64,000 nucleotides of DNA from Candidatus Bathyarchaeota archaeon (lineage in GTDB: Archaea > Thermoproteota > Bathyarchaeia > Bathyarchaeales > Bathycorpusculaceae): contig OY970176.1 of NCBI GenBank assembly GCA_963707955.1, positions 320,001 through 384,000 on the forward strand, read 5' to 3'. Below, one piece after another: positions 12,147 through 49,795 of this stretch. The position numbers and the translations under genes are program-made. The stretch's first letter is position 1; each line of letters starts with the position of its first letter. The notes beneath the pieces are model-generated. The model had not been told where the DNA came from and made no database searches. It saw nothing but the letters and a program-made list of their open reading frames with translations.

Positions 12147-12956
12147 CTATGAATGGCTGATAGAAGCGGCGTTCTTCGTGGCTTTGCGAGCAGTTGTGAT
12201 GTAGCCAGAATGGGCTGTCATCAGAGTCTGCGGTCGAGTCTTTCCCCTTTCTATCTGCATGCCCCTCATCAGACACTCGACCGTTTCAATGTCAGTGAAG
12301 CCATTTTCATTCAGTGCTTCAACAGTCTTGACAACCTGGTCTATCGTCGGGCTGAACGTCACTATTGTCCCGCTGGACCTCAAGGCCGTAAATGAGTGAG
12401 GGACAACTAGCCAAGGAATCGCTAGGTCCAGGATTACCGTATCAATGTCTTTTTCGTCTATTCCAGCGACAACGTCTTTGTTTTTCAGTTCCACGAAATC
12501 TTCCAGACCCGCTCTTTCTAGATTTTTCTTGGCTGTCTTTTGAAATTCTTCCCTTATCTCGTAGCTGTACACTCTTCCGTTGGGCCTCACATAATGTGCT
12601 AAGGCCGTTGTCATTGCACCGGTTCCTGTCCCGGCCTCAACGACCCTGCTTCCTGGGCCTATCCCACTGAACATAACTATCAAGGCTATGTCCTTTGGAT
12701 ACATTATTTGCGTTTGCCTCGCTGACTTCATGATGAAATCGCGCAGAAGAGGCTTCAAAGCTGCGAATTCAAACCCCAGGCTGCTCAGGATTGTGGAGCC
12801 GAAATCTTTTCCTACCAGGTCATCGAGTCTAACAAAACCCTTGTGCGTGTGAAAGCTCTTGCCTTGCTCAACTCTGACTAGGTAGGTTTTCCTCTGGCTG
12901 AGGCTGAGAAGTACGAGGTCACCTTCGGTTATTACCTGACTTGCCAATTCCTTCAC
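12147..12956 (-). CDS. trmI: tRNA (adenine-N1)-methyltransferase
   Basis: FHTHKG, TQIMYPKD, VEAGTGTG, YEIRE, ILDLAIPW, FSPTIDQV, HSGY. Confidence 0.93.
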   Translation of the reverse strand: MKELASQVITEGDLVLLSLSQRKTYLVRVEQGKSFHTHKGFVRLDDLVGKDFGSTILSSLGFEFAALKPLLRDFIMKSARQTQIMYPKDIALIVMFSGIGPGSRVVEAGTGTGAMTTALAHYVRPNGRVYSYEIREEFQKTAKKNLERAGLEDFVELKNKDVVAGIDEKDIDTVILDLAIPWLVVPHSFTALRSSGTIVTFSPTIDQVVKTVEALNENGFTDIETVECLMRGMQIERGKTRPQTLMTAHSGYITTARKATKNAASISHS

Positions 12957-14435
12957 TATGGTGTGTACTTAAACGGGTGCTTCGACCGATCTTTGTTCTC
13001 TACGAGTTCGTCTACGCTTGGCCTGCCTTCCATCGTCTTGCGGATAGCATGTCGCATCGCCTTGTAATTGTTTATGTAGACTCGTTGCCTGTCGACCGCT
13101 GTCGGGTGGACGAACACGTTCGCGACTATTATGAGCTCATCGGTGGCTTCTCTGGAAATCGTCCCGTCCGCAACACTGTCAACCACTGCTTTGGCCACAG
13201 CTGCTTGGGCTGGTCCGTAAACCATGCTTGCCTGGCGCATGCTGGTTATCGTGACCGTTGGAACGATCAGGGTTACCGGTTTAACTGACAGGTTGGGCTC
13301 CAAGATGGCCAGTAACGGCTCGTGGCCAGAAGACTGGCGTTGCCTTGGCCTTCGCGAACGCGTCGGCAACCGGTCCATCTTTCTCCCCGATTAGAAGGTC
13401 GATGTGCGCCACGTCTGAGCCCTGTCCAGCCAAGGCTTCACCTACACGCAGTTTGAATTTCTTGATTATTTCTGGTGTCAGGTCGATTGTTGTGAAACGT
13501 TCTTCGATGGGTTTCTCTGCTATTTCGAAGGCGATGGCCTTGGGCTTTATCTTTCCTATCTTTTCCAAGTCGAGACGCAGTTCTTCTCTTGCCTCATAGG
13601 TTAGTTCTCCGCCTACGCTAAGGGGTTTTCTAACTGGGCCGACCTTGATCTTCATCATGTTGAGAGCCTCTTTCGTACCTACGGCTCCGCTGCTGGCGAT
13701 AATTCTCGCTATTTTCTGAACCTTGTACTGCAGCTCGCGTGCCTGTTGAAGCTCGCCTTTTTTGACGTGATTATAGATTTGAATCCATATGTCTGGAATC
13801 ACGTTGGCGCTTGCCAGTATCGCGCCGGAACAGCCTGCAGCCAACCCTGCTACGACGACTTCGTCGTGCCCGCAAAGAACGTTAATCTTGTCCCTCACCT
13901 TCTCAAGAACAGCCAGTATGAACTTGAGTTGCCCGCTACTGTCCTTTACGCCGACGATGTTTGGTATTTGAGCCAAGTCTTCAACCATTTGCCAAGGCAA
14001 ATCCAGCCCCGTGCACTGGGGAATGTTGTACAGAATTATCGGTATGTCCACTTCGTTCGCGATCGTGTAATAGTGCTCGTAGATTCCTCGGTCGGCTGGC
14101 TTCAGGTAGAAAGGAGTGACGATCAAGGCGGCGGTAGCGCCAGCGTCCTTCGCGTACCTTGTCATCTCCACAGTCTGGTCGGTTCCACTGGCTCCTGTTC
14201 CCGCTATCACTGGAACTCGCCCGTTAACTTCATCGATCACAATTTTGATCACGCGCCTTTTCTCCTCAGTCGTCATGTTCACGAATTCGCCGGTCGTCCC
14301 GCATGGAACGACGCCATGAACTCCCAGTTCGAGGCAGTGGCTAACCAGAGTTCGAAGCCTCTCTTCGTCAACGGCTTTTCCATCATCTGTAAAGGGCGTG
14401 ACCAAAGCTGGAAAAATCCCTTCAGGCTTGAACAT
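12956..14435 (-). CDS. DapA/DHDPS-family class I aldolase fused to a C-terminal formaldehyde-activating enzyme (Fae) domain; frameshift at about 13335
   Basis: GTTGE, TPFY, LYNIP, GVKDSSG, then in the same frame VGEALAG..VAHIDLLIGEKDGPVADAFA (Fae N-terminus). It continues in the second frame as GHEPLLAILEPNLSVKPVTLIVP...GPAQAAVAKAV...VFVHP...NY. Confidence 0.88.
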
Positions 14436-14640
14436 TCGTCGTCCCTAGCTTTTAGTCAGATATCGCTCTTATATCGTTTAAGCTTCGAATTCGGGAACAA
14501 TCTCTTGAGATCGTTTAAGACTCAATGTTCACATAATCGAAAAAGCTCCAAGAGGAGGTCTGCTGACGATCCTTTCGTTTTGGCCGAAAATACTTAAATT
14601 CCATTAATCAACACTTACTAAAATCTGGAGGGCGACTGTC

Positions 14641-15924
14641 TTGGCTGGCCTAAGGGACAGGTTGAAAATTCACGAAGAAAACCTGAAGGAAATCAACGAT
14701 TTTCTGCTGAGAAAGGACAATCAGCTTGTGAATGACCTGCTGGAAATCGTCGACAAGTACGGCGGGGTTGACGAAATCAACCACAAAGCCGAAGAGGCGC
14801 GCAAGATCGACAAGCTCATGGACAGGCTTAGAAAGAGCGAATCTCCGTTTGTTAAAGACCTTGAATGGTTGACTAAGCAACGTGACAAAGAAGCTTTCAT
14901 CAGCGTTTCAGAATACAGGAAGAAGGTTCTGGGGAAGAAGGCGGATTCAATGAAGTTTGACGAGTCCCTCGCAGTCACTCTGGAGATTAGCGCGTTCAAC
15001 TTCTTCCCATGGCTGGTTGAGGAAGCGCAGAAGGCGATTGCAAAACAGGAGCTCATGCCAGCGCGGTACATCCGTGTACGTTCAATGAAGGAACAAATTA
15101 AGGACGATGACATACTGGCTTTCGCAGCAGCGATGCAGATCATCGGCGCATCATATGTTCAAACGCTTGACACGAAAGGTACGCTGCCTGGGCCAGATGG
15201 AAAACCGATCAACGTTCACTTGGCTGGCCCAGAGACAATTACTGGCTATTTCGGGGGAGTGGGTGTCCCGAATGAGTATTCGCTGAAATGGGTTGATGAG
15301 TTTCTCCATTACTACACCGAGTACGGTCTTCCACAAGTGTTGAACACGAATTCAGGCACCGTCCTTCTGGGGTACTGGCTGCACAAGCTGGGAATCAACA
15401 TCGAATTCAAGATTTCAGTCTTCCTAGGAATTGATAACCCCTACTCGATCCTTTGGACGCTGATGACCGCCAAACTCTTCAGCCGCGATGATGGCTCAAC
15501 TCCGCTTATCGGTTTCAACCTCTCAAACTCTGTTGATAACAAAACCATCGAACTAGCGGCTTACGTCCGAAATGCTTTCGACTTTGAAGACGTTGTTCGC
15601 CTTGAGCATCACATCACAGAAGCCTACAAGAGCATCGTAAGACAACCGTACGACCGAACTGCTGAGCTTGTGAGGCTTGCTGACCACGTGAAGAACATCA
15701 GCGCCAAACATGAGGGCGGAATTCCTGAGACAGAAAGAAAAAGGGATCACGCTTCAGACATACTCGACTACTTCATGCCAAAGAAGGACATAATCGACAA
15801 GGGTCTGATGCCAGAGTTTCTCATAAATTACCTTGACAAACACGATGCACTGAACAGAACAGCTGAGACCCTGACCAAGCACGGATTGGCGTTTATCGCG
15901 GCGCAGAACTTGCATAAGAAATAG
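14641..15924 (+). CDS. Hypothetical protein (427 aa), enzyme-like, function unknown
   Basis: Long ORF with normal composition, GGAGG upstream, His/Glu-rich motifs (LEHHITE, KHEGG); no family recognised. Confidence 0.8.
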   Translation: MAGLRDRLKIHEENLKEINDFLLRKDNQLVNDLLEIVDKYGGVDEINHKAEEARKIDKLMDRLRKSESPFVKDLEWLTKQRDKEAFISVSEYRKKVLGKKADSMKFDESLAVTLEISAFNFFPWLVEEAQKAIAKQELMPARYIRVRSMKEQIKDDDILAFAAAMQIIGASYVQTLDTKGTLPGPDGKPINVHLAGPETITGYFGGVGVPNEYSLKWVDEFLHYYTEYGLPQVLNTNSGTVLLGYWLHKLGINIEFKISVFLGIDNPYSILWTLMTAKLFSRDDGSTPLIGFNLSNSVDNKTIELAAYVRNAFDFEDVVRLEHHITEAYKSIVRQPYDRTAELVRLADHVKNISAKHEGGIPETERKRDHASDILDYFMPKKDIIDKGLMPEFLINYLDKHDALNRTAETLTKHGLAFIAAQNLHKK

Positions 15925-48757: not shown

Positions 48758-49795
48758 TTAGCAAACGTCTACAGTGGGACTTATTTTAGTTAGATCGTTC
48801 AACACTGCGTAAGCCGTCTGCCTGAGACCCGAAAACTGTGCTGAGACAAAGACTTGCTGCGATGTCTTGAACGAAAGTTTCAACCCCATATGTCCTCCGT
48901 TGACTGTGGCCAAAGGGTCGTCCAGCGGTATGAGCCGTGGTTCGACATGCATTTCAAGCTTGGTTCCTCTCTTTGAGATTTCGCACACCAATTTCACTCT
49001 TCTGTTCAGTTCTTTGGCTTTCTCAACCATCGGCCCCACGTTTCTTATTCCTTCTACCTTCACGTTCTCCAGTTTTGCGTCGTTCTTGAAGAGCGAATTG
49101 GCCAGCATCACTACTTTTCTGGCCGCATCTATTCCGTCTACATCGTCAGAGTAGTTTGTCTCGGCCCACCCTGCTTCTATTGCATACTTCAAGGCTTCTT
49201 GGAAATCTCTGCCCCTCTCCATTTCGCCTATTATGAAGTTCGTTGTAGCGTTGAGTATCCCTTGAAGACTCAGAAGCTCATCAGCCCTGAAACATGAATC
49301 AATCAGGCAGAAGATGGGAACATGAGCTGCAACCGTTGCCTCGTAGAGGAGCTTGACATGATTGCTTCTGGCCAGCTTCGTGAGGTTGCTGTATGCGACG
49401 ACAAGAGGACCCTTGTTGGCCGTGACAACGTTCTTTTTCATCATCAAGGCGGTCCTAATGTGGGATAGGCCTGGCTCACCTGACGGTGTAGACGGCGTCA
49501 GTTCCACGACTACGTCGCTTTCGATGTCGCTAATGGCCTCTGATGCTGTGTATCCATTAACATATTGACTGGCGCCTTTCCATCGATTATCCTTATGCTT
49601 CAACACTTTTCCTAAATCTAGACCTTTCTCATCCACTGCCGTCCCTTTCGAATCGGAAATTGAAACCAGTGTGAGATCGACTCCCAGAGCTTTCAGAGTG
49701 CCTTGTTTCTCTCTTACTAGAGAGAGAAGACTCTTGCCAACATTTCCCAAGCCTACGAGTTGTATCTTCATATAGGAAGTCTTGTCGTCGCCCAT
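48758..49795 (-). CDS. hom: Homoserine dehydrogenase
   Basis: GLGNVG, VVTANKGP, YEATV, GILNATTNFI, DVDGIDAARK. Confidence 0.9.
   Translation of the reverse strand: MGDDKTSYMKIQLVGLGNVGKSLLSLVREKQGTLKALGVDLTLVSISDSKGTAVDEKGLDLGKVLKHKDNRWKGASQYVNGYTASEAISDIESDVVVELTPSTPSGEPGLSHIRTALMMKKNVVTANKGPLVVAYSNLTKLARSNHVKLLYEATVAAHVPIFCLIDSCFRADELLSLQGILNATTNFIIGEMERGRDFQEALKYAIEAGWAETNYSDDVDGIDAARKVVMLANSLFKNDAKLENVKVEGIRNVGPMVEKAKELNRRVKLVCEISKRGTKLEMHVEPRLIPLDDPLATVNGGHMGLKLSFKTSQQVFVSAQFSGLRQTAYAVLNDLTKISPTVDVC

Follow-up and report, generated by a model that had tools for sequence, protein, structure and literature searches.

A DHDPS-family aldolase fused to formaldehyde-activating enzyme in Bathyarchaeia and Asgard archaea: a candidate link between pyruvate and the C1 pool

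Results

A gene that joins a pyruvate aldolase to Fae

The subject of this analysis is a 64,000-nucleotide stretch of a Candidatus Bathyarchaeota archaeon genome (GenBank GCA_963707955.1, contig OY970176.1, positions 320,001 to 384,000), referred to below as the window and numbered from its first letter. On its minus strand, at 12956..14435, it carries a gene in which a DHDPS-family aldolase is fused to formaldehyde-activating enzyme (Fae). Once a spurious base at 13333 is omitted, the gene is an open reading frame (ORF) of 492 amino acids (aa) with its stop codon at 12956-12958. The N-terminal domain (residues 4-291, 13563..14426) belongs to the class I pyruvate aldolases and is matched by Pfam PF00701, by TIGR00674 and by the solved chain 2yxg_A. 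It contains Lys164 of the motif VKDSSG (codon 13944..13946), the putative Schiff-base lysine according to the alignment with solved DHDPS, and Cys141 of YNIPQCTG (codon 14013..14015), which stands where solved DHDPS have the Arg of their YNVPxRT motif. A linker of 39 residues without any family match (residues 292-330, 13446..13562) leads into the Fae domain. The N-terminal part of Fae (profile positions 1-36, 13338..13445), with the motif DVAHIDLLIG, is in the same frame as the aldolase, and the C-terminal part (profile positions 36-158, 12971..13339) is matched by Pfam PF08714 with 160.7 bits. An intergenic region (14436..14640), presumed to hold a shared promoter region, separates the fusion from a divergently oriented partner gene on the plus strand (14641..15924), which encodes a protein of 427 aa with a helical N-terminal domain and a predicted TIM barrel.

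In the assembly as deposited, the fusion is split over two frames. The ORF 14435..13281 on the minus strand (384 aa) matches the Pfam DHDPS family at residues 4-291 (267.5 bits, profile positions 2-287 of 289) and, in the frame of this domain, Fae profile positions 1-36 at residues 331-366; Fae positions 36-158, with 160.7 bits, follow in the ORF 13378..12956, which is shifted by one frame. As the first 36 Fae positions share the frame of the DHDPS domain, the fusion is independent of the indel. The original prediction, made from the DNA letters, had described an aldolase that runs in frame into the Fae N-terminus ahead of the frameshift, and the Pfam matches on the longer ORF bear this out; the aldolase motifs it named, GTTGE, YNIPQCTG and VKDSSG, are likewise present. 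All of the best 120 database matches are 492-505 aa long, combine PF00701 with PF08714 and are 83-98% identical to the window protein; the named ones among them are mostly from Bathyarchaeia and are called '4-hydroxy-tetrahydrodipicolinate synthase' in JGI and NCBI records. With both domains matched and intact homologues at hand, the gene is a true fusion, and the window encodes an intact 492-aa protein composed of a DHDPS-family aldolase and a complete Fae. In a peat metatranscriptome, RNA contigs of relatives span both domains, which is weak evidence of transcription.

Comparison with the intact homologues reveals a single surplus T in the coding strand of the window (ccagTcttc), at position 13333, and it is this base that causes the apparent +1 frameshift. 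When this base is dropped, the gene reads AKATPASGHEPLL, in agreement with the intact 492-aa homologues. Logan contigs of the DNA runs X1, X2 and X3 each omit one letter at 13333 and are otherwise identical across 12900-14500, and the depth of the contigs that omit it is full in every run (30.7/30.7, 5.55/5.55 and 6.77/6.77, respectively). X1 is possibly the source sample, X2 and X3 are other samples of the same study, and because a single study produced them the three runs are not fully independent. In addition, a metatranscriptome contig of a relative ends at 13332, and its loose end equals the window from 13334 on. The frame break is an assembly error and not biology.

Distribution of the fusion

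The original prediction had proposed a search for the combined architecture, which located it in both Bathyarchaeia and Asgard archaea. When species-representative genomes were scanned, 80 loci were found, all of them matched over the full or nearly the full length. By title, 51 of them belong to Bathyarchaeia or Bathyarchaeota and 26 to Promethearchaeota, Promethearchaeia, Promethearchaeati, Thorarchaeota or Hodarchaeota; the other three, titled 'uncultured archaeon' (L092, L100 and L105), are Asgard-like at 55-61% identity and were grouped with the Asgard loci by identity level and gene arrangement. Among 121 sampled Bathyarchaeia species genomes, the fusion is present in 38, distributed over 11 of 30 families. 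This count includes five partial matches (G092, G079, G083, G077 and, with stop codons, G110). The sampled genomes are metagenome-assembled and 80-100% complete, so that an absence in the comparisons below means 'not found' and is no proof; as kin are not independent, the co-occurrence statistics are not to be leaned on. One genome carries two tandem copies of the fusion (G015:C13:12717-15610), which are 58% and 53% identical to the homologue P0001.

The aldolase domain departs from lysine-pathway DHDPS

With 247.1 bits for the window ORF and 246.5 bits for P0001, the aldolase domain passes the cut-off of TIGR00674, the dapA equivalog (206.15 bits). Its best solved relative is chain 2yxg_A (191 bits), and the nearest solved relatives are true DHDPS; both circumstances account for the database name DapA. 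Residues K164, Y136 and GTTGE align with solved DHDPS, placing the domain in the DHDPS/NAL superfamily (PF00701), and the Schiff-base Lys is kept in 13 of 15 aligned fusion representatives.

E. coli DHDPS holds aspartate semialdehyde (ASA) by its carboxylate, through the Arg of the YNxPxRTG motif. The original prediction held that YNIPQCTG lacks this residue, and the alignment to three solved DHDPS chains agrees: their Arg (YNVPSRT or YNVPGRTG) stands opposite the Cys of YNIPQCTG, so that the place of Arg138 is taken by Cys141 of the window protein. Across the 15 fusion representatives, taken at the 50%-identity level, this place is held by Cys in eight, by Val in three and by Thr, Leu, Tyr and Ala in one each, and by Arg in none; the stand-alone relatives in the same list kept the Arg in 51 of 126 cases. 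A FastTree phylogeny was built from 173 aldolase domains. Fusions entered it if they had 470 aa or more, with one Bathyarchaeia locus in three and one Asgard locus in two taken; representatives needed over 260 filled aldolase columns and a domain of more than 240 aa. All 47 fusions fall into one clade with an SH-like support of 98. The clade contains three stand-alone rows, and its three nearest sister groups all lack the Arg.

The genome of the window is a single contig of 2.35 Mb with a completeness of 97.2%. Profile searches found no match in it to asd (TIGR00978), dapB (TIGR00036) or lysA (TIGR01048), nor to GHMP-type thrB, HcyBio or type II dehydroquinate synthase. No match to lysW was obtained either, a weak negative given a profile of only 54 positions; LysX/Y/Z were not searched. 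Within the sample, dapB was found in none of the 38 fusion-bearing genomes, compared with 34 of the 83 others. One further, stand-alone DHDPS-family gene is present (G000:C1:2142913-2143773, L006:1483-2403), the sole other member of the family in this genome. It encodes 306 aa, matches PF00701 with 267.7 bits, and has YNVPKFTG, again without the Arg, and GSNGE in place of GTTGE. As both dapA-like genes of the genome lack the Arg, neither looks like DHDPS. The check for a separate dapA and dapB that the original prediction had called for was thus answered in part: dapB was not found, and a second dapA-like gene was found but without the Arg. Of four marks of a DHDPS, the fusion aldolase shows the profile score and lacks the other three, namely the Arg, the pathway context and the tree placement. 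The ordinary DHDPS role that the original prediction had named as its counter-case fails on genomic grounds, with the Arg missing, asd, dapB and lysA unmatched and dapB found in none of the 38 carriers. Judged by its sequence and genomic setting, the fusion aldolase is not the lysine-pathway DHDPS.

The Fae domain and its genomic setting

The Fae domain of an intact homologue scores 220.8 bits against TIGR03126 (cut-off 118.05) and can be aligned gap-free with residues 5-166 of the solved Fae 1y5y_A, VGEAL..G..VAHIDL being retained. By these comparisons the domain is complete, with the condensation of formaldehyde and tetrahydromethanopterin (H4MPT) as its putative activity. Fae proteins are pentamers, whereas DHDPS forms tetramers. 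Mch (PF02289), the sole H4MPT pathway enzyme searched, is present in the window's genome with 411.5 bits. At the very strict threshold of E ≤ 1e-100 it was detected in 33 of 38 carriers and 60 of 83 non-carriers, and the unmatched carriers G058, G030, G036, G079 and G092 may hold partial genes. A genome devoid of H4MPT genes, which the original prediction had regarded as fatal to its proposal, is therefore not what we find, given Mch and a second Fae gene.

This second gene (G000:C1:~1403814-1404990, L001:1145-2598) encodes a Fae-Hps protein with an OMPdecase-fold Hps domain. Its reading frame breaks near Fae profile positions 29-33, where on visual inspection one base seems to be missing beside a run of T (gaa g-t ttt), probably an assembly indel, and relatives have single open frames of about 480-530 aa. 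The open frame at L001:1145-1400 includes ca. 90 extra N-terminal residues that resemble a small helix-turn-helix protein (LGTAEALNIHRDTLYTWLKEF) and may be a separate gene in the same frame or a true extension.

A conserved partner protein accompanies the fusion

The earlier reading of the locus recognised the fusion and missed the neighbouring gene, whose family of about 428 aa is conserved beside it. A homologue of the partner lies within the 6-kb flanks of 70 of the 80 fusion loci (42 of 51 in Bathyarchaeia and 28 of 29 of Asgard type), and in 64 of these 70 no ORF of at least 80 aa intervenes. In the Bathyarchaeia loci the partner is always on the opposite strand and divergent. In the 24 Asgard-type loci with clean ORF calls it immediately precedes the fusion on the same strand, separated from it by 4-29 nt; overlapping ORF calls at five adjacent loci are an artefact of start-codon choice. 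Within the 121-genome sample, the partner was found in 19 of the 38 fusion-bearing genomes and in 0 of the 83 fusion-less ones. That the two genes stay together in two phyla, arranged in two different ways, speaks for a common pathway.

The partner family is large, with at least 8000 candidates at E ≤ 0.001, and well conserved, with at least 61% identity between Bathyarchaeia and Asgard proteins. The partner itself matches no Pfam family, and among the 120 relatives listed none has a Pfam domain or a name beyond 'hypothetical protein'. A profile search against the sequences of solved structures gave a designed repeat protein as the best match (E = 1.6). An AlphaFold2 model based on 39 sequences, Asgard proteins included, reached a pLDDT of 87.2 and a pTM of 0.87, compared with a poor earlier model from 14 close sequences (pLDDT 54.5). 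In it, a helical domain at the N-terminus precedes an eight-fold beta/alpha barrel. A Gly-rich loop at residues ~180-210, long and strictly conserved, could not be placed by the model (pLDDT < 50). Foldseek ranked class II FBP aldolases at the top (E = 3.9e-5, TM 0.29-0.48), VIA-align gave Z scores of 10.4-12.3 that were tied across many families, with class II FBP aldolase at 10.6, and a search of the ESM Atlas returned no usable match. A complex prediction for the fusion and the partner scored 0.00; controls were not run, and the result weighs neither for nor against an interaction.

Other conserved neighbours, among them TrmI, a peroxiredoxin, a nitroreductase, UDP-glucose dehydrogenase, peptidases and, near the partner in two f18 genomes, a family III CoA-transferase, gave no clue to a pathway, and neither did UbiA and a histidine kinase in genus g39. 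In the f18 genomes G110 and G098 (L031:3966-5132 and L033:806-2005), it is the CoA-transferase gene and not the fusion that the partner adjoins.

Gene context at the homoserine node

In genome G031, an ACT-domain gene, the fusion, a GHMP kinase gene (thrB, 201.7 bits) and thrC (376.9 bits) are consecutive on one strand, and asd and hom were not found in this genome. In G110, hom is directly upstream of a decayed fusion copy, and in four genomes of family f20 the fusion is ca. 2 kb from the homocysteine-biosynthesis gene HcyBio. The gene context thus touches the homoserine node in three families and is patchy. The decayed copy in G110 (G110:C8:518719-520183) contains a frame change as well as three stop codons; asd is present in this genome.

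Over the whole sample, asd is present in 10 of 38 fusion genomes compared with 65 of 83 others, and hom in 8 of 38 compared with 69 of 83. Of the 32 genomes lacking both asd and hom, 24 carry the fusion. In these counts asd was accepted only at a best E < 1e-40, so that eight genomes with weak ArgC-like matches were scored as lacking it, and thrB was accepted at or near the curated cut-off, with G049 (165.3 bits) included.

The contrast is sharpest in the window's own order. Carriers and non-carriers there differ in asd (1/10 versus 20/20), hom (1/10 versus 19/20), thrB (0/10 versus 15/20), dapB (0/10 versus 18/20) and HcyBio (0/10 versus 20/20), and in the opposite sense in the 428-aa partner (10/10 versus 0/20). 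The high-scoring type of thrC is found in none of the ten carriers, and nine of them lack type II dehydroquinate synthase, which G067 has. Genomes of this order (families f1-f6) fall into two sharply distinct types, even within f1 and f5: the first has asd, hom, dapB, HcyBio and type II dehydroquinate synthase, and the second has none of these and the fusion with its partner instead. This pattern looks like broad amino-acid auxotrophy and not like a specific replacement of asd.

Discussion

A candidate reaction for the fusion

To our knowledge, formaldehyde is the only substrate of Fae. The fusion of a class I pyruvate aldolase to such an enzyme points to formaldehyde as the aldehyde of the aldolase reaction, and with formaldehyde in this role the 4-hydroxy-2-oxoacid would be 4-hydroxy-2-oxobutanoate (HOB) or a 3-substituted analogue. 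From the domain combination and the patchy gene context, we propose a bifunctional enzyme that may catalyse HOB + H4MPT <-> pyruvate + methylene-H4MPT + H2O, a proposal that we consider evenly poised between right and wrong. The original prediction had already named HOB <-> pyruvate + formaldehyde as an example, with channelling to methylene-H4MPT, a course that the fusion may follow. The N-terminal domain would be a Schiff-base, pyruvate-dependent aldolase of the DHDPS/NAL family that has lost the Arg holding ASA and that splits or forms the C3-C4 bond of HOB, with formaldehyde as the aldehyde; the Fae domain would condense this formaldehyde with H4MPT, or release it. The neighbouring 428-aa TIM-barrel protein would act jointly with the fusion and probably makes or consumes the 4-hydroxy-2-oxoacid. 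For the organism studied here we favour the cleavage direction, in which a C4 acid, supplied by the partner or with its help, would yield pyruvate and a C1 unit, the latter passing through Fae into the H4MPT Wood-Ljungdahl pathway. In G031 and in family f15, which have thrB and thrC and no asd or hom, the reverse, biosynthetic use toward homoserine may be a live possibility. Substrate, coupling of the domains, direction and the role of the partner are all inferred at this stage.

A number of observations weigh against the proposed HOB reaction. The proposed substrate is a deduction from the combination of domains, and the aldolase domain clears the dapA cut-off (247 versus 206 bits) with true DHDPS as its nearest solved relatives. 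In 6 of 15 aligned fusion representatives (the sub-group P0123, P0126, P0128, P0130, P0135 and P0136) the Fae motif is degenerate, without AH.D, and the C-terminus is shortened. Fae catalysis thus cannot be essential in those lineages, and the domain may also serve structure or binding. Two of the 15 representatives (P0128 and P0133) lack the Schiff-base Lys; by its aligned sequences the fusion family is not uniform. The carriers of the window's order lack thrB, HcyBio and mostly hom, so that they show neither a known source nor a known sink of HOB or homoserine. Type II dehydroquinate synthase is likewise missing from these genomes, and the negative link to asd looks like an effect of lifestyle. 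Within family f18 there is no link to asd at all (4/15 carriers versus 3/8 others), among five Asgard carriers asd is present in four and hom in two, and four genomes keep thrB and thrC in the absence of asd, hom and the fusion. Finally, the fold of the partner matches TIM barrels in general and hence does not pin down a pathway.

Alternative explanations

The same chemistry could run in the biosynthetic direction, with methylene-H4MPT and pyruvate giving HOB, which would be transaminated to homoserine and lead on to threonine (and methionine), bypassing aspartate kinase, Asd and Hom. Such a route would be nature's counterpart to the HOB aldolase reaction in the synthetic homoserine cycle. The enrichment of the fusion among genomes without asd and hom (24/32) agrees with such a role, as do its presence in 7 of 11 genomes that have thrB and thrC but not asd and hom, the one-strand block of G031, and within-family contrasts in f1, f5 and f28. 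On the other hand, the carriers of the window's order are without thrB, HcyBio, dapB and type II dehydroquinate synthase as well and so offer no user of homoserine or ASA; the four genomes with thrB and thrC but without the fusion, the missing association in f18 and the asd and hom genes of the Asgard carriers point the same way, and no dedicated HOB aminotransferase was identified. With the evidence divided in this manner, we regard a biosynthetic function as unlikely, though a contender. The broader idea that the fusion and its TIM-barrel partner form an unrecognised natural module of Bathyarchaeia and Asgard archaea, which would join the H4MPT C1 pool to C3/C4 metabolism via HOB and would provide a homoserine/threonine route wherever thrB and thrC are kept without asd and hom, is put forward as a tentative suggestion that we regard as unlikely; it would amount to a natural form of the engineered cycle's aldolase reaction. 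A general replacement of asd by the fusion was also considered; this idea is weakened by the losses in the window's order, the null result in f18 and the Asgard carriers that have asd.

Alternatively, the aldolase may act on a larger 4-hydroxy-2-oxoacid made by the partner, such as a 2-keto-3-deoxy sugar acid or 4-hydroxy-2-oxoglutarate, with Fae serving as an oligomerisation, pterin-binding or regulatory module or as a scavenger of stray formaldehyde. The DHDPS family includes many sugar-acid aldolases, and the fusion has sub-threshold NCBIfam matches to NAL, KDG-aldolase, KdgD and HpaI-type families. The degenerate Fae motif in 6 of 15 representatives fits this explanation, as does the TIM barrel of the partner, a fold common to sugar-acid dehydratases and aldolases, whose tied fold matches include mannonate dehydratase, class II FBP aldolases and transaldolases. 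However, motif and length of Fae are fully conserved in the clade of the window, which speaks for catalysis, the one further Fae fusion found in the genome joins Fae to the formaldehyde-releasing Hps, and sugar-acid genes were not seen in the conserved neighbourhood. A larger substrate appears improbable to us in view of these points, if not to be neglected.

An ordinary 4-hydroxy-tetrahydrodipicolinate synthase (DapA) that merely has a Fae domain attached would account for the TIGR00674 score, the nearest solved structures and the name given in JGI and NCBI records, but it is very hard to reconcile with the Cys in place of Arg138, the unmatched asd, dapB and lysA, the lack of dapB in all 38 carriers and a tree that puts the domain among family members without the Arg; the genome context already contradicts it. 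A real pseudogene or programmed +1 frameshifting, suggested by the one-base break inside Fae and by a second Fae gene broken near the same profile position, is scarcely credible, as contigs of three DNA runs, possibly including the source sample, lack the extra base at full depth, homologues of 98% identity are intact, and the break of the second gene, which was not checked against reads, adjoins a run of T as is typical of consensus errors.

Comparison with known systems

The closest parallel in design is Fae-Hps (NF009833) of methanogens and other archaea, in which Fae is likewise joined, in H4MPT organisms, to an aldolase-type enzyme involving formaldehyde; there, Hps releases formaldehyde that is captured by Fae. 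The fusion described here differs in its partner domain, a class I pyruvate aldolase (PF00701) and not a hexulose-phosphate synthase of the OMP-decarboxylase fold, in the reversed domain order with Fae at the C-terminus, and in the carbon skeleton, which would be a C4 2-oxoacid in place of a hexulose phosphate. Against NF009833 the fusion scores 182.5 bits (cut-off 274) through its Fae part only, and with no OMPdecase domain it is not a member of the Fae-Hps family. The likeness is one of design and not of family.

With DHDPS (2yxg_A, 3pud_A) the fusion shares the fold family and the GTTGE, Tyr and Lys motifs, but it is set apart by the Cys for Arg, the separate clade, the C-terminal Fae and the lack of an asd/dapB/lysA context. 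In terms of reaction, the proposal coincides with the HOB aldolases of the synthetic homoserine cycle (pyruvate + formaldehyde <-> HOB). These are the promiscuous E. coli enzymes RhmA/YfaU and the DHDPS-family YagE/YjhH, which have other natural roles and act on free formaldehyde as a side activity, whereas here the aldolase is permanently fused to an H4MPT-dependent Fae. A functional analogy also exists to PanB and serine hydroxymethyltransferase, which transfer hydroxymethyl groups between a methylene-pterin and a carbon acid; their folds and mechanisms are unrelated, and they use a single active site on the methylene-pterin. A role of the fusion as a replacement for PanB, forming ketopantoate, was considered and rejected, the genome having its own PanB (318.6 bits).

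Full-text literature searches yielded no description of a DHDPS-family-Fae fusion; supplementary gene tables, which lie outside such searches, might list the gene. The match obtained for the domain pair concerns verrucomicrobial methanotrophs and was, from the portion retrieved, judged unrelated, and a search on Fae residues gave nothing useful. In the passages of a survey of Bathyarchaeia consulted here (PMC10321748), fae is described as widespread and treated only as a marker of detoxification or assimilation, and DapA is not mentioned. The portions of the HOB literature that we found deal with synthetic or engineered C1 metabolism, and in them the HOB aldolase step figures solely as a side activity put to use in synthetic methylotrophy.

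Sediments are rich in Bathyarchaeia and Asgard archaea, whose carbon metabolism is deduced almost entirely from annotation. The lysine-biosynthesis name borne by the fusion inflates predictions of lysine prototrophy and hides a likely link between C1 and C3/C4 metabolism. If the proposed reaction is correct, the fusion would be the first dedicated natural enzyme for the interconversion of pyruvate plus C1 and HOB, and Fae-Hps would no longer be the sole instance of Fae joined to an aldolase that handles formaldehyde. The abundant, uncharacterised 428-aa family, which strictly co-occurs with the fusion, in turn gains a functional partner that can be tested.

A homoserine-dehydrogenase-family gene elsewhere in the window

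Apart from the fusion locus, the window contains a gene of the homoserine-dehydrogenase family at 48758-49795 on the minus strand, which scores 152-154 bits compared with ca. 200 in most of the class. It adjoins a methionyl-tRNA synthetase gene, in a genome without an asd match, and similar low-scoring copies are present in G037, G073 and G018.

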